Source of the DNA: an uncultured Verrucomicrobiota bacterium
GTDB taxonomy: Bacteria > Verrucomicrobiota > Kiritimatiellia > CAIQIC01 > JAGNIJ01
Assembly: GCA_964617565.1 (NCBI GenBank)
Contig: CAZTYH010000003.1
Span: 13,666-68,947 of the forward strand
Reading direction: 5' to 3'
Length of the DNA stretch: 55,282 nt
Within the stretch, counting starts at the first letter, position 1. Each line of letters starts with the position of its first letter. The translations under genes and the position numbers were made by a program. Positions 23,089 through 48,902 of the stretch are shown one piece after another. The notes beneath the pieces are model-generated. The model searched no databases and was not told where the DNA came from. It worked only from the letters and a program-made list of their open reading frames with translations.

Positions 23089-23421
23089 TCACGTTGCCCG
23101 ATCGGCCTTTGCGGCAAGGATGAAATCATTCTCGGTCAGGCCATCCACCTTGTGCGTCCATATCTTCACCCGCACTTTCCCCCACGTGAAGCAGATTTCC
23201 GGGTGATGTCCTTCCTGTTCGGCTATTTCTCCGACGCGGTTGACGAAGGCCAGCGCCTCCTTGAAGTCTTTGAATCGAAAATCCTTCTCCAAGTGGTGGT
23301 CTTCAATAATACGCCACTGCCCGCCGAGTTCCCGAGCCTGTTCAGTGATCTGCTCGCTCTTAAGGGGCTTTGCGCCCGCTTCACAGGGCTTGCATTTACG
23401 CGAAACCAGTTTGTCGCTCAT
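23089..23421 (-). CDS. phhB: 4a-hydroxytetrahydrobiopterin dehydratase (PCD/DCoH family)
   Basis: 110 aa with the EQEGHHPE..F.W..V.V.IWTH signature. Confidence 0.85.
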   Translation of the reverse strand: MSDKLVSRKCKPCEAGAKPLKSEQITEQARELGGQWRIIEDHHLEKDFRFKDFKEALAFVNRVGEIAEQEGHHPEICFTWGKVRVKIWTHKVDGLTENDFILAAKADRAT

Positions 23422-23485
23422 GGCTTGCTCCCTTCATCTTTCACCTTACCACCGAAATGCGCCGGTTAAAGGGGGCGTTCGCCAT

Positions 23486-23514
23486 TTGACACGGGGTATG
23501 TCGTGGATTACGGT
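23486..23514 (+). promoter_or_regulatory. sigma70-type promoter candidate for the PKS-methyltransferase pair (TTGACA-N17-TACGGT)
   Basis: TTGACA at 23486-23491, a 17-nt spacer, and TACGGT at 23509-23514. It lies about 60 nt upstream of ATG 23576. Confidence 0.35.
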
Positions 23515-23575
23515 GCGGCTGGGCTTTTCAGGCAAATCCCTTCTTCAGAAGGATTTCAGAGAATGGAAGCATGAT

Positions 23576-28768: not shown

Positions 28769-31700
28769 GTGAGGGGGTTGTTTGGCCTGGTGTTTGCAGC
28801 GTTGTTGCTTCCCGTTTTCCCTGTTTGCGCGTCGGCGTTGGATAACGGATCATTTGAGCTTCCGTACGGCACGACGAATTGGACCGACAGCGGCTGGTCT
28901 GTGTCCGGCAATGCATGGCGGCTCTATTCCGGGGCCTGGAAGGGGGATCGCGGCGTTCTGATTCCCGGGGATACGGCTGGCGGCGCTACGGTTGCCCAGG
29001 ACATCCCGGCTGCGACGGGCACTTATACTTTTACGGGATGGGTTCGCATACGGCAGGGTACAACCCTGACCAACCTGCAACTTCGATTGGAATGGAAAGA
29101 TTCGAGCGCGAACGATATCGAAGCGCCTGCCGTCAGTACGTATGAACATCTCGAGCGAGACGGCCGCTGGCGGCATATTCATGTCACAGGTTCCTGTGCG
29201 GATCCGCAACTTGATTTCGTGCGCGTGACGTTCGTTTCCGAGCATGACGCCAAAACTTCCGATCCCGCCGGGATTTCGTTTGATCATGCGGAGTGGTATG
29301 AAGGCGGATATACGGGGGTACCTTTTCTCGTTAATGGCGGATTCGAGCAGGGCGGAACGAACGAGACGCGATGGTGGTACGGAAGCCAGTGGGGCGTGAA
29401 TCCGGAAAGCCATGCGAACAGCAGGAGGAATTGGGCGAGGTGTGCCGGGAGCTGGGGGGGGGTGCTGGAGGGATGGGTGCCCGGCTCCTTCACAAGCCGG
29501 TTCTCACAGAGCATCTATCCCATGGGAACCGGGACGTGGAGCTTTCTGATCTATTTGCACCGCGAGCCGGGCTTTGGGCTCAGCAACGCGCAACTCCGCC
29601 TCGAATGGCGGGACCGCTCGGGCACCAATCTTGTGCAGGCGGATTCCGTGGCCGATCTGAGTGTGCCGGAAGACAGCGCATGGTATCGCTACGAAGTTCA
29701 AGGGTCTTGTGGTGACACCAATCTTTTTGAAATCACCGCTGTCGCGGAATTCGTGTACGGTAATGATGCGGGCACCCACGCCATGCGGATGGATGAGGCG
29801 CGGCTTGTTCCCAATGGGTTCACGAATGTGATCCGCACGGATTGGGTATATCACAATCACCTTGATGTGGATCCGCGCATCGAGAGAGTGCCCGGCACCA
29901 ATTCGCCGGGACCGTTTCTGCAAATCAATTACGCGCGCACGGCCACAACGTTCTATGCGATCACTCCAAAAAGCGCGATCGCCCGCTATCCGGATTCGGA
30001 CGGCCAGGCGTGGATTTACATCAGCTACCTTCCTCCCCATCTGCCCGATGTGTCGGGTAATTGGATAACGATCTATGCGCCGATGACAAACATTTCGACC
30101 ATCACGCTGACGACCAACACGTCTTTCCATGGGGCGCCTGTCAGCGGAAGTCTTGATTTCGATTTGTGGCAGTTCGGCTGGCGGCAGCCGTTGAGCAATG
30201 GAGTGCCATATTCCCGCGACGTGAAAGTGTACTACGCGCCCTACCTGAGGGTTTTTCATGGGGGCGTGCCCGAGGACGAAAAATATCTCGTCAGGCTGGA
30301 TGGAGCGTTGACGAACAACTATCCCGAGGGTCCGCAACTTTTTGATCAAGCGCCCTGGGACAAGGACTATTTTCATTACAATCTGGCGCATCAGCCGGTT
30401 GCGGCATTCACCAATGGTGGATTCGAAACACCGGCGACAACCAACTGGGGCGGCGCGTCGTGGCAGGGGTACGGTTCGGCGGCGGTGGACGACTGGTCCG
30501 CTCATTCGGGCAGCCTGGGCGCGTTTCTCCCGGGTTGGTTCACCAATCGGCCGGGCGTGCGTGATTTCAGCGAGTGCGGCGTGATTCAGCCGGTTACGAC
30601 CACGGGAGGGACCTTCACCTTTGCGGCGTGGCTGCGTAGCGATGCGGGCGTGAATCCGCATCGCGTCGAAATGCGGATCGAATGGTATGATACGAACGGG
30701 GTCATGGTTCAGGTTGATCGGCGTGACTTGGCCGGCTTCCCTCGCGACGGAAGCTGGCATCATGCGCACGTCACGGGAATGTGTCTGAGCAACGGATTGG
30801 CGTACCTGGTGCCGGTGGTGTGGGGTCAGTTCTGGGCCCGCACGAACGATCCGGACCGGATACAGGTGGATGATGCGTCGCTTTATGCAGGCATCTACAC
30901 CGGAGTTCATCGGCTGGGCAACGGCGGCTTTGAGCAGGGCAATGGGGTGGAATTTCGCGGGAGCCAATGGTACGTCTGGCCCGAATATGAAGCGGCGTAT
31001 CGTCCGGCATGGGGAGCGCGGATCGGGGAGGTGGCCGCGCAATTCGACGGCAAAATCACCAATGCGCCTACCTACACGCAGATTCTCGCGCAGAATCTCA
31101 CACCCGGCACGGGCACGTATACGTTCAGCATCTGGATCACGCGGGATACCAACTTTATTATGGAGTATGCCGAACTTCGCCTTGGCTGGTACGATCACAC
31201 GTTCACCAACCGCGTACAAGACGATGACGTGGTCATGCTGGATATCCCACCCGATGGGAACTGGCGTGAATATTATGTGACGGGCACCTGCACCAATACA
31301 GCCCTTTACGAAGTTCGGTCTGTGGTGGATATGGGGTTCGAGCAGAACACAAACGATGGCTCAACCTGCCGTTTTGATGCGGCCCGATTTCTGAGTGGAG
31401 AGTATTATCCGTTGATCCGGCGCGATTGGACTTATCATCACGCCGGGCCGGTAGCTCCCGATCTCGAGCAGGTGCCACGGTCTGGAGCCGGCTCCTTCAG
31501 GCAGGTTGATTATGCAAGAACAACGACCACCTTCTACGTGATGACGGATTATCCGGACTTTGCGTCCGAGCCCGGACAGACCGGCATGGTGTACCTGCGG
31601 ACCAGTTACTATCATCCGGTTTCCAATGAATGGGTTGATCTTGTGGCGCCGATGCAGGATTCCGGCACCCTGGACCTGGAAGAAAGCGATCGTTTCCATG

Positions 31701-32347
31701 GATGGCCTGTAAGCGGATCGAAGACATTGCAACTCTACGAATATAAATGGACGCAGCCGTTGTCCGGCACAGGCGAGCCGCTGACGGATCCGATCTGGGT
31801 TTACTATACGCCGGTGCTGCGCGTGTACGAAGATGGTGAGGAGGCTGATTATCTCTGGCTTGTGCAGTCCGGAGTCGTGACCAATGCCTATCCGGAGAAC
31901 CCTCAGTTGTTCGACAGCACGTTTTATGGACGTGATTATGGATACAGTCAGGCTTGGACGACGGACCAGGACGAGGATGGCCTGCCCGATTTGTGGGAGC
32001 TGTTGTATTTCGATTCCATTGCCGATTGTCATCCGGCGGTGGACAGCGATGATGACGATTGGACGAACTTCGAGGAATACATTTCGGATACGAACCCGAG
32101 AGACGAAAATTCCTATTATCGCGGCAGGATCACGCTTCTGCGAGGTGGGTCGGTGATGGAAATGCTGCAGCAGGGGCCGACGACAAACAGCAGGCGATAT
32201 GATGTCTGGTCCACCACGAATCTGGTCGAAGGTGGACCGTGGGTCCGGTACGGGCACGAGGTTCCGGGGGGTGGCGGCGACTTGTGGATGGTCGTCACCA
32301 ATGAAGGGCCCCAGCGCTTTTTCCGCACCGGCGTCAAACTGCCATAG
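28769..32347 (+). CDS. Large secreted protein with an internally duplicated [CBM4/9-like, CBM4/9-like, unknown domain] unit, then a TSP3-like motif and a C-terminal beta-sandwich
   Basis: Signal peptide with a GTG start and a GGAGGGAG Shine-Dalgarno. Four modules begin with NGSFE or NGGFE, which is the usual opening of a carbohydrate-binding module. The protein ends with DQDEDGLPDLWELLYF...DSDDDDWTNFEEYISDTNP and ...QRFFRTGVKLP. Confidence 0.7.
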   Translation: MRGLFGLVFAALLLPVFPVCASALDNGSFELPYGTTNWTDSGWSVSGNAWRLYSGAWKGDRGVLIPGDTAGGATVAQDIPAATGTYTFTGWVRIRQGTTLTNLQLRLEWKDSSANDIEAPAVSTYEHLERDGRWRHIHVTGSCADPQLDFVRVTFVSEHDAKTSDPAGISFDHAEWYEGGYTGVPFLVNGGFEQGGTNETRWWYGSQWGVNPESHANSRRNWARCAGSWGGVLEGWVPGSFTSRFSQSIYPMGTGTWSFLIYLHREPGFGLSNAQLRLEWRDRSGTNLVQADSVADLSVPEDSAWYRYEVQGSCGDTNLFEITAVAEFVYGNDAGTHAMRMDEARLVPNGFTNVIRTDWVYHNHLDVDPRIERVPGTNSPGPFLQINYARTATTFYAITPKSAIARYPDSDGQAWIYISYLPPHLPDVSGNWITIYAPMTNISTITLTTNTSFHGAPVSGSLDFDLWQFGWRQPLSNGVPYSRDVKVYYAPYLRVFHGGVPEDEKYLVRLDGALTNNYPEGPQLFDQAPWDKDYFHYNLAHQPVAAFTNGGFETPATTNWGGASWQGYGSAAVDDWSAHSGSLGAFLPGWFTNRPGVRDFSECGVIQPVTTTGGTFTFAAWLRSDAGVNPHRVEMRIEWYDTNGVMVQVDRRDLAGFPRDGSWHHAHVTGMCLSNGLAYLVPVVWGQFWARTNDPDRIQVDDASLYAGIYTGVHRLGNGGFEQGNGVEFRGSQWYVWPEYEAAYRPAWGARIGEVAAQFDGKITNAPTYTQILAQNLTPGTGTYTFSIWITRDTNFIMEYAELRLGWYDHTFTNRVQDDDVVMLDIPPDGNWREYYVTGTCTNTALYEVRSVVDMGFEQNTNDGSTCRFDAARFLSGEYYPLIRRDWTYHHAGPVAPDLEQVPRSGAGSFRQVDYARTTTTFYVMTDYPDFASEPGQTGMVYLRTSYYHPVSNEWVDLVAPMQDSGTLDLEESDRFHGWPVSGSKTLQLYEYKWTQPLSGTGEPLTDPIWVYYTPVLRVYEDGEEADYLWLVQSGVVTNAYPENPQLFDSTFYGRDYGYSQAWTTDQDEDGLPDLWELLYFDSIADCHPAVDSDDDDWTNFEEYISDTNPRDENSYYRGRITLLRGGSVMEMLQQGPTTNSRRYDVWSTTNLVEGGPWVRYGHEVPGGGGDLWMVVTNEGPQRFFRTGVKLP

Positions 32348-36237: not shown

Positions 36238-37029
36238 ATGAGCATCTGGCTTGGACGAATCGGTGCGAACGCCATCGGCAAGCTGCGGATTCACAGCGAT
36301 ACCGCGGCGATTGTCTGGGGCGTTTTCTGCGCTGCGTTTCGCCGGGACACCTGGCCGCGAACCGTTCGGAATGTCTTTGCCCGGCAGATTCTTTTCACCG
36401 GTTATGAGGCTTCCCGCTTTATTGCCCTGCTGGCTGTCATGGTCGGCATTTCCGTCGTCGTTCAAATGCAGGTCTGGTTGGCGCGGGTGGGGCAGACCGG
36501 TTTGCTCGGTCCCGTGCTGGTGATGGTTATTGTGCGGGAGTTGGGGCCGTTGCTGGTCAACTTCATCGTTCTGGGCCGAAGCGGAACCGCGATGGCCACG
36601 GAACTGGGCAACATGAAAGTGGCCGGCGAGGTGAACGTGTTGGATGCGCAGGGATTGGATCCTTTCATCTACCTCGTGGTGCCGCGCGTACTGGGGATGG
36701 CGATTTCCGTTTTCTGCCTCACGATCATTTTTATTATCGTATCCTTTTTCAGCGGTTATTTAATCGGCCTGCTCCTGGGTGCTAATCCCGGACCGTTCGT
36801 TCTCTTTGTGGAAAGCGTTTTCCGCGCGGTCAGTCCGCAAGACGTGGTGAACGTGCTGGTGAAAACGTTCATCCCCGGCGCGATGACGGGCGTGATCTGT
36901 TGCATGGAAGGCCTGAGCGTGGAGGCATCCATAACGGAGGTGCCTCAGGTGATGACGCGAGCCGTGGTGCGCTCGGTGGGTGCTTTGTTTGTGGTTTCGG
37001 CCATCATGTCTATTTTGACGTATGTATAG
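36238..37029 (+). CDS. mlaE: MlaE-family ABC transporter permease
   Basis: 263 aa with VRELGPLL...GRSGTAMATELGNMKV..E...L...G, which is characteristic of MlaE/TGD1 permeases. Confidence 0.85.
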   Translation: MSIWLGRIGANAIGKLRIHSDTAAIVWGVFCAAFRRDTWPRTVRNVFARQILFTGYEASRFIALLAVMVGISVVVQMQVWLARVGQTGLLGPVLVMVIVRELGPLLVNFIVLGRSGTAMATELGNMKVAGEVNVLDAQGLDPFIYLVVPRVLGMAISVFCLTIIFIIVSFFSGYLIGLLLGANPGPFVLFVESVFRAVSPQDVVNVLVKTFIPGAMTGVICCMEGLSVEASITEVPQVMTRAVVRSVGALFVVSAIMSILTYV

Positions 37030-37032
37030 CGT

Positions 37033-37749
37033 TTGCGGACACGAGAGGTGCGCGTGGCACAAGAGCCAATCATTAGATTCGAAGAGGTCACGATCGAGGT
37101 GCGACCTCCGTTTGATGCCGGTCTTCGCTCTTTTTCGTGCGCGATCAGGCCGGGAGAGTTGCTTGCCGTGCACGTGGCGGATGGATATGGGCATATACCC
37201 CTGGCAAGTGCCGCACAGGGATTGATCACGCCGGATAGCGGCCGTGTTTTCATCAAAGGCGAAGATTGGAGCCTTGTGTCTCCGCTTCGCGCAGCGGAAT
37301 GCCGGGGGAAGACCGGCCGCGTTTTCGAGGAACACGGATGGGTGAGCAACCTCGATATGGATGAAAATATCACCCTTTCGGAGCGCCATCATACGCTTCG
37401 GCCCGAGGACGAGATTATTGCGGAGGCGCGTGAATTGGCCCGCCGGTTCGGTCTCCGGGAACTCCCCGCCGGGCGCGCGGGGATTTTGAAGCGCGCAGAC
37501 CGGCGCCGCGCGGAGTGGGTGCGCGCCTTCCTGGGCAGTCCGCTGCTGATCCTCCTGGAGCATCCGATGCGTGACGTCTACGAGGAGGCGCGCGCGAGCT
37601 TGTTGGACGAGGTTCGCGCGGCGAAAAATCGCGGCGCGGGAGTCATTTGGATTTTATCGGATCCTGTGTCATGGAAAGCTGTTTCTGAAATCGCAAATTA
37701 CAAGCTGAAGCAAAATGGAGCCGACCTGGTTCCTGCGGAGGGGATGTGA
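37033..37749 (+). CDS. MlaF-position ABC-ATPase-like protein with all nucleotide-binding motifs degenerate
   Basis: The length and layout match an ABC nucleotide-binding domain (IIRFEEVTI, GELLAV, ITPDSGRVFIKGEDW). The Walker A position reads VADGYGHIP and has no GK[ST]. The Q-loop reads FE. The signature position reads LKRAD rather than LSGGQ. Walker B reads LILLEHP rather than DEP. The H-loop position reads SDP. Alternative GTG starts lie at 37048 and 37054. Confidence 0.6.
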   Translation: MRTREVRVAQEPIIRFEEVTIEVRPPFDAGLRSFSCAIRPGELLAVHVADGYGHIPLASAAQGLITPDSGRVFIKGEDWSLVSPLRAAECRGKTGRVFEEHGWVSNLDMDENITLSERHHTLRPEDEIIAEARELARRFGLRELPAGRAGILKRADRRRAEWVRAFLGSPLLILLEHPMRDVYEEARASLLDEVRAAKNRGAGVIWILSDPVSWKAVSEIANYKLKQNGADLVPAEGM

Positions 37750-38663
37750 TCATGCCCAAGCCATTCAAATTCAGATACGTCAATGAAATCACCGGAGCGT
37801 TTGTGCTGCTGGTCGTCGCTGCCCTCGTGGTCGGCATCTTCGTGGCCGGCCGCGCACAGAAGTGGTTTGAGGAAATACATGAAGTGAACATCAAGTTCCC
37901 TGAGGAAGGGTCATTCGACCTGCAGCGGGGCGCGGAAGTGAGGATCCTCGGCGCTCTGGTCGGCTCGATCGAGGAAATCAGCGTCGCGGACGACGGTGAA
38001 ATGTCCGGCATCCTCCGCATTCGCGGCAAGTTTATCCGTTTCGTGCGCACCGATTCGCGCGCCATCGCGAAGAAAAAATTCGGCGTTGCGGGCGATGCGT
38101 TCCTGGAAATCACGAAGGGCAACGGGGATCCATGGCCGGAGGAATCCGTGCTGAAGGTGGAGAAGGATACGGAAATCACGGAGCTGATCCAGGAAGTGAT
38201 CGAACGAGTGGAGGAAGTGGCCCTGCCCGCCATAGAACAGGTTCAGAAAGCGCTGGAGGAATACACCAACCTTGCGGCGGATCTTCGCGACAGGGAGGGG
38301 AATTTGCAGCAACTCCTCGGACACCTCAGCAACCTGGCGGATTCTCTCGAGAAGGGCGAGGGCACAGTGGGCCAGTTGCTGCGCGACCCGTCGTTGGCCG
38401 AGGAATTGCGCGCGATCGCGGCCAAGGTGGATGACTCGCTCGCCGAGGTGACGAAGATCCTCGAGGATGTGCGCGCCTCCACGGGCGTGGTGAAGGATGA
38501 GATGCAGGACGTGCCGGGCATTATGCTGCAAACCAGGGCAACGATGCGCGAAACGGAGAAGCTGATCGAAGCGCTGCAGCGGCATTGGCTTTTGCGGAAA
38601 TACGTGGAGGGCGGGGAGCCCAGCACATTGATTTCACCCGCAGCGGTGGGAGGTGGGCGATGA
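37746..38663 (+). CDS. mlaD: MlaD/MCE-domain protein with a long C-terminal coiled-coil region
   Basis: An N-terminal transmembrane segment is followed by an MCE domain (GAEVRILGALVGSIEEISV...). It overlaps the stop of the preceding gene. The start could be GTG 37746 or ATG 37752. Confidence 0.8.
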   Translation: MIMPKPFKFRYVNEITGAFVLLVVAALVVGIFVAGRAQKWFEEIHEVNIKFPEEGSFDLQRGAEVRILGALVGSIEEISVADDGEMSGILRIRGKFIRFVRTDSRAIAKKKFGVAGDAFLEITKGNGDPWPEESVLKVEKDTEITELIQEVIERVEEVALPAIEQVQKALEEYTNLAADLRDREGNLQQLLGHLSNLADSLEKGEGTVGQLLRDPSLAEELRAIAAKVDDSLAEVTKILEDVRASTGVVKDEMQDVPGIMLQTRATMRETEKLIEALQRHWLLRKYVEGGEPSTLISPAAVGGGR

Positions 38664-39637
38664 AAAAGAACCCGGGCATTTTGTGCTGGGCCTGCTGGAG
38701 TGTCGCCATCCTGATGCTGGTCGGTTGCGCGGCGAAGAAGCCCGCGATGACAACCGATCCGGAGCTGTCGCGCGTTGCCGGTGTTGCGCGGATGTCGTTC
38801 GAACAGGGTTCGCTCGAACAGTCCGCCCGCCTGTATGCGAGGGCCTTGCGTATAGCGCGTAAAATGGATGATGCGCGGGAGGTCGGCAGTAACGCGTATA
38901 ACCTGGCCGCGTGCCTCGCGGAATTGGGGCGCTATCCGGAAGCGCTCGGTTATCTCCACGAAGCGCAGGCGGAGTTCGATCGCGCGGGACGTCCGCTGGC
39001 CGATGTACTCTTGCTGAAAGCGAAGATCGCGCTGCTCGATGGACGCTATGACGAAGCGTTGAGCTATGGCGATCAGGTCGTGCCGGCGGCACAAAAGCCG
39101 GGCCAGGATTCCTATGCCGTGCAGGTCATGCTGCTGCGGACGGATGTGGCAATTGCCCGGGGTTCGATGGCCGAGGCCCAGGCCGAATTCGACCGCGCAA
39201 AAAAGGAAGTGCAGCGCATTCGGGACCCGCTACTGAACGCGCAGGCGGCAGGCGTCGAGGGGCGAATCCTCCAACTCGCCGGTTCGTTCACGCAGGCCGC
39301 TGAAGGATTCGACCGCCAGGCTGAATTGCTGCGAGGTGTTGCCCGCTTCCGCGAAATGGCTCATGCGTTGGGCCGCGCCGGAGAGGCGTACCAGCAGGCG
39401 GGGCTTTTTGCGCCTGCCGGCGACCGGTTTTATCGCGCGGCGCGCAGCTTGTATGCGCAAGGGGACGACCTTATGGCTTTGAAGATGATCCAGGCCGCCC
39501 TCGCCGCCGGGGAAAAAAGCGGCGACGAAAATGCGTTTCGTTCGATTGCCGCACTTTTCGAGGAAGTGCGCGCGCGCGTGGAAAACAGCGTGAAGAAATC
39601 ACCCACCGAAACGTCGAATGATGCGGGTGATATTTGA
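38660..39637 (+). CDS. TPR-like lipoprotein, the fourth gene of the Mla-like operon
   Basis: Lipobox is MLVGC. The rest is helical-repeat and Ala-rich. Its ATG overlaps the mlaD stop in an ATGA. Confidence 0.65.
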   Translation: MKKNPGILCWACWSVAILMLVGCAAKKPAMTTDPELSRVAGVARMSFEQGSLEQSARLYARALRIARKMDDAREVGSNAYNLAACLAELGRYPEALGYLHEAQAEFDRAGRPLADVLLLKAKIALLDGRYDEALSYGDQVVPAAQKPGQDSYAVQVMLLRTDVAIARGSMAEAQAEFDRAKKEVQRIRDPLLNAQAAGVEGRILQLAGSFTQAAEGFDRQAELLRGVARFREMAHALGRAGEAYQQAGLFAPAGDRFYRAARSLYAQGDDLMALKMIQAALAAGEKSGDENAFRSIAALFEEVRARVENSVKKSPTETSNDAGDI

Positions 39638-39705: not shown

Positions 39706-40200
39706 ATGAAAAGATGTGTGGATTTATGTGTTGTGCTTGCTTTGCTCTTTTGCTCCGGGGCGGCGCTTGCCGCCGCGCCGCAGCAGATGAGTGTGCAGAT
39801 TCGCAATGGCCAGGTACGCGCGAATCCTTCTTTCCTCGGGCCGATCGTTGCGCCGGTTGAATACGGCGACTCGGTCCGGGTTTCGGGCGAGCAGGCGGGA
39901 TGGATGAAAATCACGACGCCGGCAGGCAAGGAAGGATGGATTCACGGATCGGCGTTGACTACCAAGCGCGTGGTACTCCAGGCCGGAACCAAGGATGTGC
40001 AGGCCGCTGCGTCGGGCGACGAATTGGCGTTGGCGGGCAAGGGGTTCAGCTCCGAAGTGGAGGCCGAGTTCAAGGCGGCGAACAAGGACATTGATTTCAG
40101 GTGGGTGGACCGCATGGAAACGTTCAAGGTGGATATGCAGGAAATCCAGCGCTTCCTTAAAGAAGGAAATGTGACCTCGCGGGAAGGAGGCCGGCCGTGA
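39706..40200 (+). CDS. Secreted bacterial SH3 (SH3b) domain protein
   Basis: A signal peptide ends ALAAAP. The SH3b-like core reads VRANPSFLGPIVAPVEYGDSVRVSGEQAGWMKITTPAGKEGWIHGSAL. Confidence 0.65.
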   Translation: MKRCVDLCVVLALLFCSGAALAAAPQQMSVQIRNGQVRANPSFLGPIVAPVEYGDSVRVSGEQAGWMKITTPAGKEGWIHGSALTTKRVVLQAGTKDVQAAASGDELALAGKGFSSEVEAEFKAANKDIDFRWVDRMETFKVDMQEIQRFLKEGNVTSREGGRP

Positions 40201-41120
40201 AGAAATGCTTCCTTTCCATTAATTGGATTGCCGTTGCTGTTCTGGCGATGGTTGTTGCGGCGGTTGCCGTGGGATGCGCGACCGTGGCCCAGGTTGGAAC
40301 CGCGGTCGGGCAGGCAACCGGAGTGATCACACAGGAACAGGCCGATTCCATCAATCGCGGCGCTGCGGCGGTGGAAAAAACTTTCCAGGACATCACGCCT
40401 GAGCAGGAGTACTACCTTGGGCGCTCCGTGGCCGCGACGATCCTGAAGGCGTACAATGTGTACGAAAACGATGCGGCCACGCATTATCTGAACGTGCTTG
40501 GGCAGACGCTCGCTCTTGCATCAGACAAGCCGGAAACCTTCGGCGGCTACCATTTCGCCATCCTGGATACGGACGAAATCAATGCGTTTGCGGCCCCGGG
40601 CGGATTGATCATGATCTCGCGCGGGATGATTCGCTGCTGCACGACGGAAGATGCGCTCGCCGCTGTGCTCGCGCACGAAGTCGGGCACGTCGAAAATCAG
40701 CACGGACTCAAGGCGATTCGGAAGGGGCGACTGACTTCGGCACTCACGATCCTTGCGCTGGAAAGTGCGAAGCAACTGGGTGGTGAAAATCTGGCCGAGG
40801 TAACGAAGGCCTTTGAAGGCAGTATCAGCGACATCACCGCGACGCTGATGAACAACGGTTATTCCCGCAAAACGGAATACGAGGCCGATCGGTCCGCGGT
40901 GAAGGTCATGAACCGCGTCGGCTACGATCCCGAGGCGCTGGTGGATATGCTGCACGAGATGAAGAAGAATCTGAAACCGGGCGGACTCGATTTTGCAAAG
41001 ACCCATCCCGACCCGAACGTGCGTATCGCCGAATTGCGGAAGGTAATCGGCCCGGCCGGCAAGGTGGATGTGGTTCCCGCGCGCCAGCGCCGTTTCGAGA
41101 AGGCTGTGGGCGGGATCTGA
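40197..41120 (+). CDS. M48-family zinc metallopeptidase lipoprotein
   Basis: Lipobox is AVGC and the zinc motif is HEVGH. The GTG start overlaps the SH3b gene stop by 4 nt. Confidence 0.8.
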   Translation: MKKCFLSINWIAVAVLAMVVAAVAVGCATVAQVGTAVGQATGVITQEQADSINRGAAAVEKTFQDITPEQEYYLGRSVAATILKAYNVYENDAATHYLNVLGQTLALASDKPETFGGYHFAILDTDEINAFAAPGGLIMISRGMIRCCTTEDALAAVLAHEVGHVENQHGLKAIRKGRLTSALTILALESAKQLGGENLAEVTKAFEGSISDITATLMNNGYSRKTEYEADRSAVKVMNRVGYDPEALVDMLHEMKKNLKPGGLDFAKTHPDPNVRIAELRKVIGPAGKVDVVPARQRRFEKAVGGI

Positions 41121-41127
41121 GAGAGCT

Positions 41128-43263
41128 TTGAAGAAGAAACTTCTATTCGGAATTCTTATCGGCGCAGTGTCTGCCTTGCTGGCCTGCACGCTTGATGGAT
41201 TGCGCCAGCTCGATACATGGGAATTCAATACGTGGGATCTTCGTGTCCGCTTCTTCAAGGGCGAGAGTCCTGCCACCGACAAAATTCGGGTCATTCTTCT
41301 CGACCAGGCGAGCCTCGATTGGGGCAAGAACGAGAACGCGCTGGCGTGGCCATGGCCGCGCCAGGTCTATGCGCCGATCCTGGATTTCTGCCGGCGCGGT
41401 GGGGCAAAAGTGATTGCCTTCGACGTGCTGTACACGGAGCCGTCCGCTTATGATGCCTATGACGATACAGCCCTCGGGACGGCGATTCAGGCGACGCCCG
41501 GTTTTGTCGGAGCCGTTTTCATGGGTCGGGCTTCGGGCGACAGAGATGCGTGGCCGGAATTCGTTCCGTCGCCGCCCTATGTGATTCAAGGCTTGGAGCA
41601 ATGGTTGGCAGGAGAACGGCCGACCCGTGTTGAATCTTTGCGCGCGGCGTTCCCGATTCCCGATCTTGCGACCAACGCCACATTACTCGGCAATGTCAGC
41701 GATGAGCCGGACAAGGACGGGGTTTTTCGGCGTGCCACTCTTTTCAAGGTGTTCGATGGGCGGGCCGTGGCATCCCTCGGCCTTGCGGCCTATCTTGCGG
41801 GTGAACCGGACGGCGGCCGCCAGGTTCCGCTTTCCATTGAGGCCGGATGGTTGAGGGTCAACAATCGCCGCATTCCCATTGATTCCGAGGGGCGTTATAT
41901 CCTGCGGTTTGTCGGGCCTTCGGGATCGCACCGGACCTTCAACGCGGCAACAATCATACAGTCGGAAGTGCGAATCCTTTCGGGAGAAACGCCGGCATTG
42001 GATCCCGAGGTGTTTCGCGATTGCTATGTGCTTTTCGGGTTCAGCGCGCCGGGGCTGCTGGATTTGCGGCCGACGCCGGTCAGCGGAGTCTATCCCGGGG
42101 TCGAAATTCATGCGACGATGTTGGACAACCTGCTTTCACAGCTTTTCCTGCGTGATGCACCACCCGCGCTGGTCATGATCGTCATTATCGCGATGGCCTT
42201 GTTCAGCGGTGTGCTTGGCACATTGAGCCGAAAAGCGTGGCAGAGTGTGTTGACCTTCTTCGTTTGCCTGCCGGTGCCGGTTGTGGTCGGGCTTGCGGCC
42301 TATCCGGCGGGCTACTGGTGGCCGATAGTGGCAGGGACTATTGCGGTTGCTCTTTCTCTGGTCGGAGCCGTGGTGGTGAACTACGCGACCGAAGGCCGCC
42401 AGAAAGCCTTCATTAAAAATGCATTCCGGTTCTACGTGGGACCGGAAGTGATTGACCAGATGATCTCCGATCCATCGAAACTCAAGCTCGGCGGCGAAAA
42501 GAAGGAGCTGACCCTGTTCTTTTCAGACTTGGAGAAATTCTCCTCGTTCTCCGAAAAACTGAAACCCGAAGAGCTGACGGCATTGCTCAACGATTACCTC
42601 TCCGACATGGGTGAAATCATCAAGGAGGAGGGGGGGTATCTCGATAAGTATATTGGTGACGCGATCGTCGCGTTCTGGAACGCGCCGGTGCCGCAACCCG
42701 ATCACGCGTTGCGCGCTTGCCGGGCCGCGCTTCGCTGTCAGAGGAAGCTTGCAGAGCGGCGCGAGGAAATCGCGCAGCGAACCGGCGCCGTGCTGAAAAT
42801 GCGCATCGGCATCAACACCGGCGAAGTGACCGTGGGCAACATGGGCTCGCGTGAACGGTTTAATTATACCGTACTCGGGGATGCCGCGAACCTGGCGTCG
42901 CGGCTTGAGGGCGCAAACAAGTTCTTCGGCACCTACACGATGATTTCCGAATCGGCCTGGGGGCAGGCGTCGCAGGGGCTGGTCGGCCGCGAGATGGGCC
43001 GTATCCGGGTGGTGGGTCGCGCCACGCCCGTACGTGTCTACGAAGTGGTCGGCCTGGCGGGAGAGTCCGTGCCGGAAGCGGTTTCCGGATTTGAACAAGC
43101 AATCAAACTTTGCTATGCTGGCGCGTGGCGTCAGGCGCTGGATCTATTGGAGCGTTTCCCGGACGATCCGTTGTCCGCGAAATATGCTGCGCACTGCAGA
43201 ACGATGTTGGCTGAACCCTCCCGTAAATGGGAGGGAGTCTGGACGTTGACGGAAAAGGGCTGA
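41128..43263 (+). CDS. CHASE2 sensor domain plus class III adenylate/guanylate cyclase
   Basis: The N-terminal periplasmic CHASE2-like region is followed by transmembrane segments and then the cyclase catalytic motifs FFSDLEKFSSFSE, GDAIVAFWNAP, RIGINTGEVTVGNMGS and YTVLGDAANLASRLE. I chose the TTG at 41128, downstream of the M48 stop. Confidence 0.8.
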   Translation: MKKKLLFGILIGAVSALLACTLDGLRQLDTWEFNTWDLRVRFFKGESPATDKIRVILLDQASLDWGKNENALAWPWPRQVYAPILDFCRRGGAKVIAFDVLYTEPSAYDAYDDTALGTAIQATPGFVGAVFMGRASGDRDAWPEFVPSPPYVIQGLEQWLAGERPTRVESLRAAFPIPDLATNATLLGNVSDEPDKDGVFRRATLFKVFDGRAVASLGLAAYLAGEPDGGRQVPLSIEAGWLRVNNRRIPIDSEGRYILRFVGPSGSHRTFNAATIIQSEVRILSGETPALDPEVFRDCYVLFGFSAPGLLDLRPTPVSGVYPGVEIHATMLDNLLSQLFLRDAPPALVMIVIIAMALFSGVLGTLSRKAWQSVLTFFVCLPVPVVVGLAAYPAGYWWPIVAGTIAVALSLVGAVVVNYATEGRQKAFIKNAFRFYVGPEVIDQMISDPSKLKLGGEKKELTLFFSDLEKFSSFSEKLKPEELTALLNDYLSDMGEIIKEEGGYLDKYIGDAIVAFWNAPVPQPDHALRACRAALRCQRKLAERREEIAQRTGAVLKMRIGINTGEVTVGNMGSRERFNYTVLGDAANLASRLEGANKFFGTYTMISESAWGQASQGLVGREMGRIRVVGRATPVRVYEVVGLAGESVPEAVSGFEQAIKLCYAGAWRQALDLLERFPDDPLSAKYAAHCRTMLAEPSRKWEGVWTLTEKG

Positions 43264-43283
43264 TGCGGAAACCAGGTGATGCA

Positions 43284-44129
43284 ATGAAAGTAATTTTTGG
43301 CGGTGTTCGCGGAACCAGTTGCGTGGCGCAGCCCGAGTTTTCCCGTTTCGGAGGCGATACGACCTCCTTGCTGGTGGAGGGGTCTGCCGGGGGGCGTATC
43401 CTGATAGACGCTGGAACGGGTATCCGGCAACTTGGCGAGCGCATTGCGGCAGCAGGAAGCGAGTCGCGCGCACTGCTGCTGATGACGCATTACCATCTGG
43501 ATCACGTCATGGGTTTGCCCTCGCTGCCGTTGTTATATCAGCCGGGCGCATCCCTGTTGATGGCGTCACCGCCTCGTGCCGGGCGCACGATGGAAAAAGT
43601 GGTGCGTCAGATCATGGCCCAGCCGTACTGGCCCGTGCAGATGGAGGACCTTCACGCTTCGATTCGCTTTCTGAAGTGGAAGGATGTCGCCCCGAAAGCG
43701 CCTGCCCGCTTCGGCGAGTTCGACATCCGGTGGTGTTCGGTGCATCATCCGGGCGGTTGTACGGCCTATCGCGTGGAAGAGCGGGAGAGCGGCGCATCGC
43801 TGGTCTTTGCGACGGATATCGAATGGGCGTTGTCGAGCCCGAAGGAGAAGAAGACCTTTCTGAAACTTTGCACGGAGCCAGTGCCCGCGAACCTGCTCGT
43901 CATGGACGGCCAGTACAACCGGCGCGGCTACGCTCCGTTCAAAGGCTGGGGCCACAGCACGTGGGAAGATACCGTGGATGTGGCGCGGGAGACCGGTGTC
44001 GGAACGTTGTTGATCACGCACCATGCGCCCCGGAATACGGACCAGCAATTGCGGAGCCTGGAAGGTCTTGTGCAGAAAGCGTTTGCCCGCGCCGGGTTGG
44101 CGCGCGCGGGCCAGGAGGTTTCGCTTTAG
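43284..44129 (+). CDS. MBL-fold metallo-hydrolase
   Basis: Has the HYHLDH (HxHxDH) motif. The start is ATG 43284, or alternatively ATG 43263, which overlaps the cyclase stop by 1 nt. Confidence 0.75.
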   Translation: MKVIFGGVRGTSCVAQPEFSRFGGDTTSLLVEGSAGGRILIDAGTGIRQLGERIAAAGSESRALLLMTHYHLDHVMGLPSLPLLYQPGASLLMASPPRAGRTMEKVVRQIMAQPYWPVQMEDLHASIRFLKWKDVAPKAPARFGEFDIRWCSVHHPGGCTAYRVEERESGASLVFATDIEWALSSPKEKKTFLKLCTEPVPANLLVMDGQYNRRGYAPFKGWGHSTWEDTVDVARETGVGTLLITHHAPRNTDQQLRSLEGLVQKAFARAGLARAGQEVSL

Positions 44130-46226: not shown

Positions 46227-46389
46227 CGCATATTCCTCCGGCAAAACTTCCAGCACGGTAACGCAGAATGCGCCGCCAATCAAGCCGTCCATTCCCTGTA
46301 TCCGTTCTTGCATCCCGGGCCATCTCCAAACACAATACAGTTAACGAACGGCAGTGTGGCTGAAGCTCCTTAACCCTGTAGGTGTTTAT

Positions 46390-47166
46390 ATGAAGATTCT
46401 GATGCGCATCGTGATCGTGATCCTGATTCTTCTGGCCATACTTATTCTTGCGCGAAACGTCATTATTGAGAAGTTGACTCGAAAGACCGTGTTGCAGACT
46501 ACGGGTTTCGATATCGAAATGGGTGGAATTCGCGCAGGACTGCTGGATCCCGTGTTCGAGATTACAAATGCCCGCTTGATCAATCCGGAGGATTTTACCG
46601 AGCCAACCGCATTGGAGATCAAGACCCTCAGGGTGAAGTACGATTTGCCGTCGTTCTTCAAGGAAGAGGTTCATCTCCGGGAGGTTGTAGTGGATGTGCC
46701 TCGCGCGGTGCTTGTGATCCGCGAGGATGGGGAAAGCAATCTCGCGCGATTAGGTCAGGTCGCCCAGGGAGAGAGCAAAGAGGAATCCACGGGCAAAGAG
46801 GGCGAGGGCGGGCAGGAGGCTAAGCCAGGAAAGCGTGTCCGCGTGGATATCCTGACGCTCCGAGTGGGCAAGGTTGATGTCTATCGCTATCGCGAGGGAT
46901 CTGACAAGCCGGAAGTGGACAAGTACGACGTGAATTTTGACCGGACCGCGCGCGATGTGACCGATCTTAATGTCGTCAACGGTATGATTACCGCGGGTGT
47001 GATAGAAGCTGTAGGCGCAAGAGCCCTGCAAGGGTTCACAAAAGCTTTCCAGCAAAACGAGGGCGATCTTGAGAAAGTCGGCCAACAAGTCGAGCGGACA
47101 GCAAAAGATGTAGGGAAGCAGCTTAAAGGCTTGCTGAAAGATGCCGGCATAAACACAGACCGCTGA
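46390..47166 (+). CDS. Membrane-anchored protein of unknown function
   Basis: Has an N-terminal transmembrane segment (MKILMRIVIVILILLAILILA) followed by a soluble, charged region. Confidence 0.55.
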   Translation: MKILMRIVIVILILLAILILARNVIIEKLTRKTVLQTTGFDIEMGGIRAGLLDPVFEITNARLINPEDFTEPTALEIKTLRVKYDLPSFFKEEVHLREVVVDVPRAVLVIREDGESNLARLGQVAQGESKEESTGKEGEGGQEAKPGKRVRVDILTLRVGKVDVYRYREGSDKPEVDKYDVNFDRTARDVTDLNVVNGMITAGVIEAVGARALQGFTKAFQQNEGDLEKVGQQVERTAKDVGKQLKGLLKDAGINTDR

Positions 47167-47310: not shown

Positions 47311-47418
47311 GTATTATTGTTGTAATGTTTATTAAAAGCGCATTAATGACACACTCTAATCGTTTAGAAAAAAGTGTAAGCAATTGAAATACAATATATA
47401 GCATAAGATTTGGCGTTT

Positions 47419-47434
47419 TGGCATGCCCATTGCT
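47419..47434 (+). promoter_or_regulatory. sigma54 (-24/-12) promoter candidate for the Hsp20 operon
   Basis: TGGCAT-GCCCA-TTGCT compares with the consensus TGGCAC-N5-TTGCW. The GG and GC dinucleotides are correctly spaced. It lies about 70 nt upstream of the first Hsp20 ATG. Confidence 0.55.
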
Positions 47435-47505
47435 GTATATGGTTTTGTGTATTGTGGAGGATATCCCTCCATGCAAAGACAAGACGATTATGGAAGGAGG
47501 AAAAT

Positions 47506-47940
47506 ATGTGGTGGTTGAACGACATAACAATGGGGTCGGATCCGTTCCGAGAGATGAGGCGGTTGCAGAGAGACATTAACCGGCTTTTCTCCGGCTACGA
47601 AACTGCCGGCGATGTTTTCCCGGCAGTAAATGTCTGGGCAAACAGGGAAAACGTTGTGGTTACGGCAGAGTTGCCGGGAATGGATGCGTCTTCCATAGAT
47701 ATCTCGGTCCAGGGAGACCAACTCTTGCTTCAAGGCGAGAAAAAGGCGGATGAGATGGCGGGTGATGTGGTTTGCCATCGAATTGAGCGTGGGTCCGGCA
47801 AATTCATGCGCACGTTCCGTCTGCCTTACGAGGTGGATAACGCGAAGGTGGACGCCAAGTATCGAAACGGCGTGTTAACCGTGACCCTGCCTCGCCAGGA
47901 AAGCAGCAAGCCGAAAAAGATCGCCATCAATGCGGGTTAA
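47506..47940 (+). CDS. Hsp20/alpha-crystallin small heat-shock protein 1
   Basis: Has VVTAELPGMDASSIDISV and GVLTVTLPR. A GGAAGGAGG Shine-Dalgarno precedes the ATG. Confidence 0.9.
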   Translation: MWWLNDITMGSDPFREMRRLQRDINRLFSGYETAGDVFPAVNVWANRENVVVTAELPGMDASSIDISVQGDQLLLQGEKKADEMAGDVVCHRIERGSGKFMRTFRLPYEVDNAKVDAKYRNGVLTVTLPRQESSKPKKIAINAG

Positions 47941-47956
47941 TCGGGAGGTGACGAAC

Positions 47957-48361
47957 ATGACACAGGAAACAAAAGCCATGAAGACGCAGAAGAAAGAAAA
48001 CACGGATGTCGAACTGACTCGTGATGAGCCGGTTTTCCTTCCCGCGACGGATATCTATGAAAAATCCGATGCGGTTTTGGTGATGTGTGACATGCCGGGT
48101 GTGGATGAAAAGAGCGTGGATGTAGGCCTTGAAAACGGTGTGCTTACCATCACGGGGCGCCAGGAGTCGGCGCCGATGGATGGGTATGAGTTGCTCCATC
48201 ATGGCTATCGCACAGGCATCTTTCGAAGGACATTCAATGTAACGGCGGATATAGATGCATCGAAGATAGACGCCAAGATTGCAAAAGGCGTTCTTCGACT
48301 GGTCTTGCCGAAGAGCGAGAAGGCTCGGCCGCGCAAGATTGCTGTCGTGTCCGGTGATTGA
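47957..48361 (+). CDS. Hsp20/alpha-crystallin small heat-shock protein 2
   Basis: Has VMCDMPGVDEKSVDVGL and GVLRLVLPK, with a GGGAGG Shine-Dalgarno. Confidence 0.9.
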   Translation: MTQETKAMKTQKKENTDVELTRDEPVFLPATDIYEKSDAVLVMCDMPGVDEKSVDVGLENGVLTITGRQESAPMDGYELLHHGYRTGIFRRTFNVTADIDASKIDAKIAKGVLRLVLPKSEKARPRKIAVVSGD

Positions 48362-48389
48362 AATCACGAAATGAAGGGAGGTGTCGTCT

Positions 48390-48902
48390 ATGAACAGAAG
48401 TCTGATTCCGTGGCGCAGAAAGGAGGGCCTTCCGGCCCGGAGTCGGGATGCAGACAATCCTTTCGAAGCGCTGCATCGGCAGATGAACGAACTCTTTGAG
48501 AGTTATTTTGAGGAATTTGATGTTCCTCGTCTGCCGGGGCTGTGGCGCGGCGGTGAAGGGCTAAGCACCCTGACACCGAGTTTCGAGGTGGCCGAGACGG
48601 ATGATGAGGTCAAGGTCACGGCGGAACTTCCGGGCATGGAGGAAAAGGATATCGAAGTGACGCTGGAAAACAACATTCTCACTGTGAAGGGTGAGAAGAA
48701 GGAAGAGAGGGAGGAGAAGAAAAAGGGCCGCTACTTCACAGAGCGCCGATACGGGCACTTCCAGCGGATGCTTTCCCTGCCTTCAAATGTGCAGGAGGAA
48801 AAGGTCAGGGCAAAATTCAAGAAAGGCGTTCTTTCGATCACGCTTCCGAAGTCGGAAGAAGCCCGCAAGAAGGGGCGGAAAATAGAAGTTGCGGTGGAAT
48901 AA
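48390..48902 (+). CDS. Hsp20/alpha-crystallin small heat-shock protein 3
   Basis: Has VTAELPGMEEKDIEVTL and GVLSITLPK, with a GGGAGG Shine-Dalgarno 8 nt upstream of ATG 48390. Confidence 0.9.
   Translation: MNRSLIPWRRKEGLPARSRDADNPFEALHRQMNELFESYFEEFDVPRLPGLWRGGEGLSTLTPSFEVAETDDEVKVTAELPGMEEKDIEVTLENNILTVKGEKKEEREEKKKGRYFTERRYGHFQRMLSLPSNVQEEKVRAKFKKGVLSITLPKSEEARKKGRKIEVAVE

Follow-up and report, generated by a model that had tools for sequence, protein, structure and literature searches.

The window analysed here, a stretch of DNA of 55,282 nt, contains between positions 36238 and 39637 a module of four ORFs, all on the + strand: an MlaE-family permease of 263 aa (36238..37029; PF02405, E 2.5e-52), a 231-aa homologue of ABC nucleotide-binding domains (NBDs) that we refer to as the pseudo-NBD (37054..37749; PF00005), a single-MCE-domain protein of 303-305 aa (37746..38663; PF02470, 28.1 bits) and, as the final gene, a TPR lipoprotein of 325 aa (38660..39637; TPR_12, 47 bits). 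ORFs and Pfam matches agree with the order given in an earlier note on this DNA (MlaE, NBD-like protein, MlaD and TPR lipoprotein), an MlaE permease and an MlaD-type MCE protein sharing one operon. Two details of that reading required adjustment, because the pseudo-NBD had been taken as a 238-aa protein separated from mlaE by 3 nt. The longest pseudo-NBD ORF opens at TTG 37033; the most likely start, however, is GTG 37054, as it is preceded by a GAGAGG Shine-Dalgarno sequence 5 nt upstream and is used in homologues, giving a protein of 231 aa encoded 24 nt downstream of mlaE. The overlaps at the two following junctions were as described, each of 4 nt: the MCE gene opens with GTG 37746, overlapping the pseudo-NBD stop (or else with ATG 37752), and translation of the TPR gene begins at ATG 38660, overlapping the MCE stop within ATGA, with the identical start called in loci L083 and L084. 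TTG 38585 is not the TPR start; the protein read from ATG 38660 has the lipobox LVGC. The module genes are translationally coupled.

Three linked genes that are not universal among relatives follow on the + strand, encoding a secreted SH3 protein (39706..40200; SH3_3, E 2.3e-10), an M48 metallopeptidase that is a probable lipoprotein and whose gene shares 4 nt with the end of the SH3 gene (40197..41120; PF01435, E 6.9e-34) and an adenylate/guanylate cyclase with a CHASE2 sensor (41128..43263; PF05226 and PF00211 detected in L084, where the gene is identical). These SH3, M48 and cyclase genes follow the module in 17 of the 44 loci with enough downstream DNA (~40%), in some cases after an insert of ~3 kb, and the four-gene module stands alone in other loci. 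One locus (L001) carries an additional cNMP-binding MscS channel. The order of the four module genes is near-invariant among the loci of relatives. Of the 71 loci having upstream DNA, only L042 lacks a visible MlaE gene immediately upstream of the pseudo-NBD; a scripted count gave 64/71, six of the seven misses being overlap artefacts of stop-to-stop ORFs. The MCE gene is downstream of the pseudo-NBD in 74/74 loci, and the accessory position noted previously for the TPR lipoprotein is kept by a TPR gene in 61/63 loci.

The pseudo-NBD matches PF00005 with only 28.0 bits against a Pfam cutoff of 25. The motif columns were set by aligning the protein at residue level, with phmmer, to NBDs of known structure (FbpC 9j4r, LolD 7mdx and 7v8i), and all five degenerate motifs fell exactly where they had been read from the sequence. 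Where the solved NBDs have GPSGCGKT at Walker A (consensus GxxGxGK[ST]), the window protein has VADGYGHI; FQ of the Q-loop is FE (Q to E), the signature LSGGQ is LKRAD, LLDEP of Walker B is LLEHP (DE to EH) and THD of the H-loop is LSD (H to S). The protein thus lacks the Walker A Lys/Thr, the Q-loop Gln, LSGGQ, the Walker B Asp-Glu and the H-loop His and, judged as a functional ATPase of PF00005, fails at Walker A, at the signature and at Walker B, Q-loop and H-loop. Both profile- and structure-based alignments, a check that the earlier note had proposed, show no intact Walker A or B and no misalignment. The general ABC layout, also claimed previously, is evident from AlphaFold (AF2), Foldseek and PF00005, which agree on a RecA-like and a helical subdomain. 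The AF2 model is a clean ABC NBD fold (pLDDT 95, pTM 0.92) that Foldseek superposes on LolD, FtsE, MacB and MlaF with TM 0.8-0.87 at 17-23% identity, and on MlaF specifically with TM 0.77-0.82. The modelled fold is intact and the permease-docking region, as judged from aligned sequences, is conserved. Pfam and TIGRFAM profile scans detected no signalling domain of known kind in the pseudo-NBD.

The same protein is carried by no fewer than 123 species-level PVC genomes, every one a MAG, and forms a family of 531 clusters at 50% identity (E<=1e-30), with the four-gene operon conserved across Verrucomicrobia and relatives. Of six catalytic residues, at most two are kept in any of the 233 sequences examined (83 members found at 80 genome loci and 150 representatives of the 50%-identity clusters). 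Among the 83 locus sequences the Q-loop Gln and the SGG of the signature are both absent (0/83 each), a Walker A Lys-Thr pair occurs once, in L001/P0008, which keeps GHGKT, and another sequence has the Lys alone. Similarly, the Walker A Lys is present in 3/150 representatives and the Gly positions of the signature are Gly in 4/150 and 16/150. The Walker B Asp is replaced by Glu in nearly all of the 83 sequences and in 127/150 representatives, with the position of the catalytic Glu occupied mostly by Arg, His or Asn and a few members having Glu-Glu; the Q-loop Gln is exchanged for Glu or Asp, and the H-loop His is rare. The P-loop is often acidic (e.g. VEPGNEQL, LEEGREHI), and in the hmmalign alignment roughly one representative in four is gapped at this place.

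Across 229 sequences the most conserved 25-residue stretch, GRVFE..GW.SNLD.DENITL.ERHHT, covers the Q-loop and helical subdomain, i.e. the permease-docking face, and P-loop, signature and C-terminus are the least conserved parts. W72, W96, W155, W199 and the ERHHT motif are invariant and specific to the family. In comparison with the 93%-identical relative L083, the pseudo-NBD has a dN/dS of 0.17 at dS 0.20, in line with the purifying selection that the earlier note had regarded as a possible sign of a pseudo-ATPase; the values for MlaE, MCE and TPR are 0.04, 0.02 and 0.19, respectively. These alignments show the loss of catalytic motifs to be conserved and selected, and its spread over the PVC superphylum together with purifying selection points to a conserved pseudo-ATPase and not to a recent degenerate copy. 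The earlier note had asked whether orthologues carry canonical motifs; none has a canonical set, and the comparison confirms a broader observation than the one made there, a loss that is family-wide as opposed to the decay of a single copy.

The permease scores 121 bits with TIGR00056, below the 212-bit cutoff, 72 bits against P. aeruginosa MlaE (7ch8) and 57 bits against YrbE1A (8fed), and it represents a divergent MlaE subfamily keeping an EAA-like loop (RELGP...GRSG...ELGNMK...G.DP) that is >90% conserved in a 76-sequence profile. The MCE protein matches the Mce family model TIGR00996 with 51 bits over residues 17-276 and TIGR04430 with 32 bits, below the equivalog cutoff. Its predicted layout resembles the Mce1/needle type, with an N-terminal TM helix, an MCE beta-barrel (~42-138) and a helical C-terminal region of ~150 residues; the AF2 monomer has a TM segment at 7-38, beta structure at 42-138 with pLDDT ~80-86 and helices at 140-283 that are of low confidence (pLDDT ~50). 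Over residues 23-284 (E 5.7e-4) the MCE profile aligns to a chain of the mycobacterial Mce1 structure, 8fed_B ('Virulence factor Mce family protein'), and this alignment takes in both the MCE domain and the helical region; the window gene and its relatives give faint or weak matches to PF28544 (Helical_needle). The TPR lipoprotein has a signal peptide and a lipobox, LVG-C, with Ala at +2, and Pfam identifies it as a TPR protein, not as PqiC- or MlaA-like. A strict pattern (a hydrophobic stretch, then [GAS]C) was found in 34/61 TPR ORFs, and a lipobox-like pattern is visible by eye in most of the N-termini inspected among the remainder.

The earlier note had also stated that the window lacks any other ABC ATPase as well as MlaA, MlaB and MlaC genes, and this was borne out. 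An HMM built from canonical NBDs and run against all six-frame window ORFs of >=60 aa matched the pseudo-NBD ORF only, and Pfam detected no MlaA (PF04333), MlaB (STAS) or MlaC (PF05494) among 36 window ORFs or in the gene calls of L084 (20.9 kb, overlapping the window around the operon). In relatives, canonical MlaF is a gene distinct from the pseudo-NBD: of the 80 loci, at least 10 have a canonical MlaE-MlaF-MlaD operon 5-6 kb downstream in the same orientation, with GPSGTGKS, ISGG, DEP and THD present in its MlaF. The module MlaE scores 63-79 bits against this neighbouring canonical MlaE versus 236-548 bits within its own family, and most loci have no canonical MlaF within 10 kb.

By analogy with known systems, we infer that the four genes encode an Mla/MCE-type envelope lipid conduit, with the complex, its stoichiometry and its substrate assigned by homology. 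We lean, with somewhat more confidence than doubt, towards a model in which a structural pseudo-NBD holds an MlaE-MCE-lipoprotein conduit whose transport is not driven by ATP at the pseudo-NBD. Homology to MlaFEDB and Mce1 suggests that an MlaE dimer in the inner membrane would be joined to a hexamer of the single-MCE protein, whose helical tails would form a needle crossing the periplasm, with the TPR lipoprotein probably at the outer-membrane end. The place usually taken by the MlaF ATPase belongs in this operon to a paralogue retaining the ABC fold and the docking face onto the permease coupling helix. From the motif loss, this subunit is predicted neither to bind or hydrolyse ATP nor to form an ATP-sandwich dimer, and it may instead cap MlaE structurally and keep it in a state resembling the nucleotide-free one, open to the periplasm. 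Lipids would then follow their own gradient through the MlaE cavity and the MCE tunnel, or else transport would be gated by something besides ATP at the pseudo-NBD. The transporter probably does not use its ATPase-like subunit as a motor. MlaE without ATP is V-shaped and open towards the MlaD pore, and lipids have been reported to be transferred from MlaD independently of ATP (PMC10212509). The strong constraint on MlaE and MCE is as expected for a working conduit. On the other hand, a passive conduit does not account for the retention of a full-size NBD instead of its loss.

The earlier note had offered two readings, an ATPase borrowed from elsewhere or a system without ATP drive, and this interpretation is supported as a pair, although the data do not strictly separate the two. 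Were the motor borrowed, the pseudo-NBD would pair with, or be swapped for, a canonical MlaF encoded elsewhere and transport would still be ATP-driven. The downstream MlaE-MlaF-MlaD operons make cross-talk with a real ATPase conceivable in at least 10 relatives, and the resemblance of the EAA-like loop of the module MlaE to that of canonical MlaE makes docking of a real MlaF conceivable as well. We nevertheless consider this unlikely, since a pseudo-NBD without Walker A and signature would render both composite sites of a heterodimer defective, in contrast to the asymmetric ABC transporters known so far, where one site stays intact (PMC7756269); since the docking face is the best-conserved part of the pseudo-NBD, which is translationally coupled to MlaE and presumably fills both docking sites; and since the module MlaE is distant from its canonical neighbour and most loci have no MlaF nearby. 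Equally unlikely in our estimation is a sensor or regulator, in which the module would report envelope or lipid status with the pseudo-NBD as a cytoplasmic signalling or ligand platform, possibly coupled to the adjacent CHASE2 cyclase and M48 protease. Such a function could explain the linked SH3, M48 and cyclase genes of the window and its relatives, the MscS channel of L001 and the invariant Trp residues and ERHHT motif, which ATPase function leaves unexplained, and a regulatory or ligand-binding role is as compatible with the conservation as a structural one. By contrast, the linkage is confined to ~40% of loci, the pseudo-NBD has no recognizable signalling domain and the most constrained genes are those of the conduit itself.

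The conserved Walker B-like hhhhE-x-P, with its prevalent Glu, and the few members with Glu-Glu or GHGKT could be taken as traces of a cryptic NTPase, still able to bind or hydrolyse nucleotides or some other phosphate compound through non-canonical residues such as this Glu. With a P-loop that is among the least conserved stretches, often acidic and gapped in part of the representatives, and with the phosphate-binding Lys, signature, switch His and Q-loop Gln all missing, we regard such an activity as very improbable. Least credible of all is a recent degenerate copy or an annotation artefact: the Pfam score barely over threshold might raise the suspicion of a pseudogene or of misaligned motifs, yet the ORF is intact throughout the species-level genomes and clusters of the family, and the alignments to solved NBDs, the family-wide loss, the dN/dS of 0.17 and the pLDDT of 95 refute this reading.

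We found no literature description of a system like this one. A close counterpart is Mpc of Brucella abortus (MpcE/F/D/A; PMC12436622), which is likewise a four-gene operon with an MlaE-type permease and an NBD gene, a single-MCE protein of ~300-330 aa and a lipoprotein encoded last, is also devoid of MlaC and MlaA, and has been proposed as a trans-envelope bridge. The helical needle of the Mpc MCE protein and the outer-membrane location of the Mpc lipoprotein have predicted equivalents in the module. However, MpcF is described as an ABC ATPase that is conserved and homologous to MlaF, whereas the window NBD appears catalytically dead, MpcE has a STAS (MlaB-like) domain that was not detected in the window module, and the Mpc lipoprotein is PqiC-like instead of TPR (PMC12436622). 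MlaFEDB of E. coli, P. aeruginosa and A. baumannii (6xbd, 7ch8, 6z5u) has a homologous MlaE (60-72 bits), an MCE domain and, in MlaF, the fold of the pseudo-NBD; unlike the latter, MlaF actively hydrolyses ATP, carries a C-terminal extension and partners with MlaB, and a short MlaD (183 aa) works with MlaC and MlaA as lipid shuttles, whereas the window has an MCE protein of the long type and none of these accessory genes. Mycobacterial Mce1 (YrbE1A/B, Mce1A-F, MceG; 8fed) has chains (8fed_B, MCE1c) that the window MCE protein matches over both the MCE domain and the long region predicted to be helical, as well as YrbE1A, to which the window permease is related, and it shares with the long-MlaD MlaEFD of Veillonella (PMC10665443) the concept of a bridge without MlaA or MlaC that we propose for the module. 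Both retain a working ATPase (MceG or MlaF), unlike the window module; moreover, Mce1 is a hetero-hexamer, and the Veillonella MlaD terminates in a beta-barrel that PVC MlaD proteins lack (PMC10665443).

Precedent for MCE tunnels working without an ABC ATPase comes from PqiABC and LetAB: PqiABC is an MCE system without any ATPase, and Pqi has an outer-membrane lipoprotein partner (PMC12436622). These systems differ from the window module in using PqiA or LetA, not MlaE (PF02405), in the inner membrane, in having MCE proteins built from 3-7 MCE domains instead of one, and in lacking an NBD-like subunit altogether. Finally, ABC transporters with one degenerate site (TM287/288, TmrAB, CFTR, ABCC1, SUR1) likewise have a non-canonical Walker B, switch His and signature, and their degenerate site has a structural role (PMC7756269). 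In these transporters only one composite site is degenerate, and this site still binds ATP as the other powers transport (PMC7756269), whereas in the presumably homodimeric pseudo-NBD every motif is lost and both sites would be dead.

Four tightly packed ORFs in the same direction occupy window 36238-39637. They encode a MlaE permease (36238-37029; PF02405, E 2.5e-52), an ABC-NBD-like protein at the MlaF position (the pseudo-NBD, 37054-37749; PF00005, 28.0 bits versus a cutoff of 25), an MCE protein (37746-38663; PF02470, 28 bits; TIGR00996 'Mtu_fam_mce', 51 bits over residues 17-276) and a TPR protein (38660-39637; TPR_12, 47 bits). The gap of 3 nt that the earlier note had seen between the MlaE and MlaF-like ORFs had to be revised: judging from the sequence, the start codon of the pseudo-NBD gene is almost certainly GTG 37054, which has a GAGAGG Shine-Dalgarno 5 nt on its 5' side and corresponds to the residue at which the homologues start, so that the spacer is 24 nt. 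For the TPR gene the start is ATG 38660, where an ATGA is shared with the MCE stop codon, and the N-terminus of the TPR protein, MKKNPGILCWACWSVAILMLVG-C, is a predicted lipoprotein signal peptide. A canonical-NBD HMM run against all six-frame ORFs found no second ABC ATPase or NBD in the window, and the window ORFs scanned included no member of the MlaC, MlaA or STAS families, in agreement with the note's statement that the window holds no further ABC ATPase and no MlaB, MlaC or MlaA-like gene.

phmmer alignments of the pseudo-NBD to solved NBDs gave unambiguous motif columns, in which GPSGCGKT of Walker A is replaced by VADGYGHI, VFQ of the Q-loop by VFE, the signature LSGGQQQR by LKRADRRR, LVLLDEP of Walker B by LILLEHP and VTHD of the H-loop by ILSD. 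hmmalign to a profile of 15 canonical NBDs returned the same columns, and the two kinds of alignment together rule out motif misalignment. The AlphaFold2 model computed from 65 family sequences (pLDDT 95, pTM 0.92) superposes on LolD, FtsE, MacB, YbbA and MlaF with TM scores of 0.8-0.87 at 17-23% identity. Together, the alignments, the model and its superposition indicate that the pseudo-NBD is a genuine ABC NBD by descent and predicted fold from which the catalytic residues have all gone. Its assignment by sequence to MlaF over other NBD families was not possible, as the top matches in PDB and NCBIfam are FbpC, LolD, FtsE and LptB and MlaF reaches just 30-37 bits. A broad Mla survey used synteny as the sole basis for identifying MlaF.

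A first protein search with the pseudo-NBD retrieved about 66 relatives with identities of 33-93%; with one genome per species scanned, at least 123 genomes encode it, and a profile run against 1.84 billion cluster representatives yielded 531 clusters at E<=1e-30. The best 80 of the 123 carrier genomes are all MAGs, with no cultured host seen among them; those with informative names are Verrucomicrobiota/Kiritimatiellia and Lentisphaerota, plus a few Phycisphaerales/Tepidisphaerales, Auribacterota and 'PVC group' members. Public records label these proteins 'ATP-binding protein' or 'phospholipid/cholesterol/gamma-HCH transport system ATP-binding protein', and the ATP-binding label is probably wrong for this family. 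None of 83 locus-derived family sequences carries the Q-loop Gln or the signature SGG, the Walker A Lys-Thr pair occurs in one of them and Lys alone in one more, the Walker B Asp is changed to Glu nearly throughout, the catalytic Glu position mostly holds Arg, His, Asn or Gln, and His is rare at the switch position. Likewise, every one of 150 diverse representatives has at most two of the six key catalytic residues. The sequence with the Lys-Thr pair (P0008, L001 10001-10678, from the locus of a 49%-identical relative) keeps a Walker A-like VTPGHGKT and Glu-Glu at Walker B, although Q-loop Gln, signature and switch His are gone; it may be a relic or have partly reverted.

In a single comparison, that of the window with the 93%-identical relative L083, dN/dS was 0.17 for the pseudo-NBD (dS 0.20), 0.04 for MlaE, 0.02 for MCE, 0.19 for TPR and 0.08 for pyruvate kinase. 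Across 229 pseudo-NBD sequences the top-conserved stretch, GRVFE..GW.SNLD.DENITL.ERHHT.RP, comprises the Q-loop and the helical subdomain, which in ABC transporters form the groove that receives the permease coupling helix; EWVRAF and LIxLE.P also belong to the most conserved set, and conservation is lowest in the P-loop, the signature and the C-terminus. In the partner MlaE, the EAA-like segment RELGP...GRSG...ELGNMK...G.DP is more than 90% conserved. Family-wide conservation, the dN/dS of 0.17 and the confident fold rule out recent pseudogenisation: the pseudo-NBDs make up a conserved family, and the window gene is no decayed member of it. The earlier note's description of an overall ABC layout with five degenerate motifs thus stands (PF00005 match and modelled fold for the layout, solved NBDs and canonical profile for the motifs), and the check that it proposed, whether orthologs share the degeneration, comes out in favour of purifying selection on a pseudo-ATPase (83 and 150 sequences; dN/dS).

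ORFs were called in the 80 genome loci and named by their phmmer matches to the proteins of the window. MlaE lies directly upstream of the pseudo-NBD in all but one (L042) of the 71 loci with enough DNA (the script counted 64/71, six of the seven misses being artefacts of overlapping stop-to-stop ORFs), the MCE gene lies downstream in 74/74 and the TPR gene in 61/63. A strict lipobox-like pattern (a hydrophobic stretch, then [GAS]C) was found in 34 of the 61 TPR ORFs, and by eye in most of the remaining N-termini displayed, and the proposal of a TPR lipoprotein at the accessory position is borne out by its gene counts and predicted signal peptide.

At least 10 loci also have, 5-6 kb downstream, an entire canonical MlaE-MlaF-MlaD operon, whose MlaF is intact in its motifs (GPSGTGKS, ISGGMRKR, ILYDEP, VVVTHD). 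The MlaE of the pseudo-NBD module scores 63-79 bits against the neighbouring canonical MlaE versus 236-548 bits within its own family; thus, at least in some lineages, the pseudo-NBD system coexists as a divergent paralogue with a normal Mla core. The canonical operon is on the same strand as the module in L002 (17089-19573), L029, L049, L050, L051, L060, L062, L072, L073, L075 and L078, which belong to one subclade, and its MlaD is of the needle type (338 aa). In L002 two OTCase-like genes, among others, separate module and operon. The arrangement suggests an old tandem duplication. Other ABC ATPases within 10 kb in relatives were rejected as partners: that upstream in L082 belongs to an unrelated ABC_tran_2 system, that of L037 is a TOBE-domain importer ATPase and that upstream in L002 adjoins FecCD and Peripla_BP_2 genes. 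Only ATPases in MlaE-MlaF-MlaD triplets are relevant here.

The AlphaFold2 monomer of the MCE protein shows an N-terminal TM helix (7-38), an MCE beta-barrel (42-138, pLDDT ~80-86) and about 150 residues of helix (140-283) predicted with low confidence. Its profile aligns over the MCE domain and helical region to mycobacterial Mce1 chains (8fed_B, MCE1c; E 5.7e-4 and 3.3e-3), and PF28544 'Helical_needle' matches the window gene and its relatives faintly or weakly. By sequence features, then, the protein appears to have the long needle-type architecture, not the short E. coli MlaD type. With a putative needle-type MCE protein, a predicted lipoprotein as last gene product and no MlaC, MlaA or STAS among the scanned ORFs, the module has the same layout as the Brucella Mpc trans-envelope system, which consists of MpcE, MpcF, the 331-aa needle protein MpcD and the outer-membrane lipoprotein MpcA (PMC12436622), but differs in its dead NBD and in having a TPR lipoprotein instead of a PqiC-like one. 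The layout also matches the 'bridge' concept of Veillonella MlaEFD (PMC10665443).

Downstream of the module, window 39706-44129 encodes a secreted SH3 protein (39706-40200), an M48 lipoprotein peptidase (40197-41120), a CHASE2-sensor nucleotide cyclase (41128-43263) and a metallo-beta-lactamase-fold protein (43284-44129), a group that may form a unit for envelope signalling with a link to the proposed lipid conduit. The first three of these genes follow the module in 17 of the 44 loci with enough DNA, sometimes behind an insert of ~3 kb, and L001 has a cNMP-binding MscS channel in addition.

The pseudo-NBD lacks catalytic and nucleotide-binding motifs while being conserved and selected, its fold is intact and its docking region conserved, and its operon partnership with MlaE, the putative needle-type MCE protein and the lipoprotein is invariant save for L042 and two loci without the TPR gene. 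We infer that, as a structural cap, it would bind the coupling helices of MlaE; because the P-loop lysine and the signature motif are absent, the ATP sandwich closing the MlaE dimer could not form. In solved MlaFEDB, nucleotide-free MlaE is V-shaped and open toward the MlaD pore, and lipid transfer from MlaD without ATP has been observed in vitro (PMC10212509). On this precedent, a permanently nucleotide-free MlaE would connect the inner membrane to the MCE tunnel as a static portal, and lipid would flow along its own gradient, as assumed for ATPase-less PqiABC. That the pseudo-NBD is a conserved, catalytically dead structural subunit is highly probable, and we lean slightly towards the overall reading of cap, static portal and lipid movement along a gradient; for the passive conduit taken by itself, the case falls just short of even.

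A borrowed MlaF could instead be the motor, a reading supported by the canonical MlaEFD operons near the module in relatives, but its heterodimer with the pseudo-NBD would have two defective composite sites, whereas known asymmetric ABC proteins with one degenerate site retain an intact one (PMC7756269) and the pseudo-NBD motifs are all lost; we consider this unlikely. Equally doubtful is a sensor or regulatory role tied to the CHASE2 cyclase, which draws on the partial synteny but for which the linkage is missing in most loci. A cryptic NTPase with non-canonical residues is more improbable still, given a P-loop that varies, is often acidic and in some cases is missing, and a pseudogene or motif misalignment is refuted and retains virtually no probability.

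ATP-driven dimerisation of the NBDs is what defines ABC transporters, and natural examples with one degenerate site are well studied. The full-text literature searched contained no account of an MlaF-like subunit that lacks its motifs, of an ABC system with a fully degenerate NBD as its only one, or of a conserved family in which a complex's only NBD has no catalytic motif and is yet under selection. PVC bacteria have unusual envelopes, and the module, an MCE/Mla-type system with a pseudo-NBD, represents a widespread uncharacterised PVC envelope system (at least 123 species-level genomes). More tentatively than the passive conduit, we envisage an ABC-derived machine working without ATP: PVC-wide MlaE-MCE bridges in which a fossilised NBD serves only as structural or regulatory cap and lipid movement is passive or bidirectional, possibly gated by CHASE2 cyclic nucleotides. 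Debate continues over both the direction and the energy need of Mla/MCE transport (PMC10212509). An MlaE-MCE system that is ATPase-dead by nature offers a direct test of what permease and tunnel achieve in the absence of a motor and, if the reading is true, this natural 'ATPase-dead Mla' experiment bears on the forward-versus-backward debate.

Elsewhere in the window, 7 kb downstream of the MCE module, a short AsmA/DUF748-like protein (46354-47166, 270 aa) belongs to another of the families implicated in lipid transport between membranes. At 23240-25377, a type III polyketide synthase (chalcone/stilbene synthase-like) and a UbiE/COQ5-type methyltransferase are translationally coupled and may be a phenolic-lipid biosynthesis pair. 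Two very large ORFs lie at 8835-13928 and 28769-32347: one encodes 1697 aa with bacterial TSP3 repeats and a beta-helix, the other 1192 aa with no Pfam match, followed by a weak RdgC-like gene. Three HSP20 (alpha-crystallin) small heat-shock genes stand in a row at 47410-48902 according to the gene calls of L084, the locus overlapping the window, two of which were also found by the Pfam scan of window ORFs. Finally, a membrane H+-pyrophosphatase gene is located upstream of the module both in the window (919-3051) and in L001 (1-1137), which hints at longer-range synteny in this lineage.
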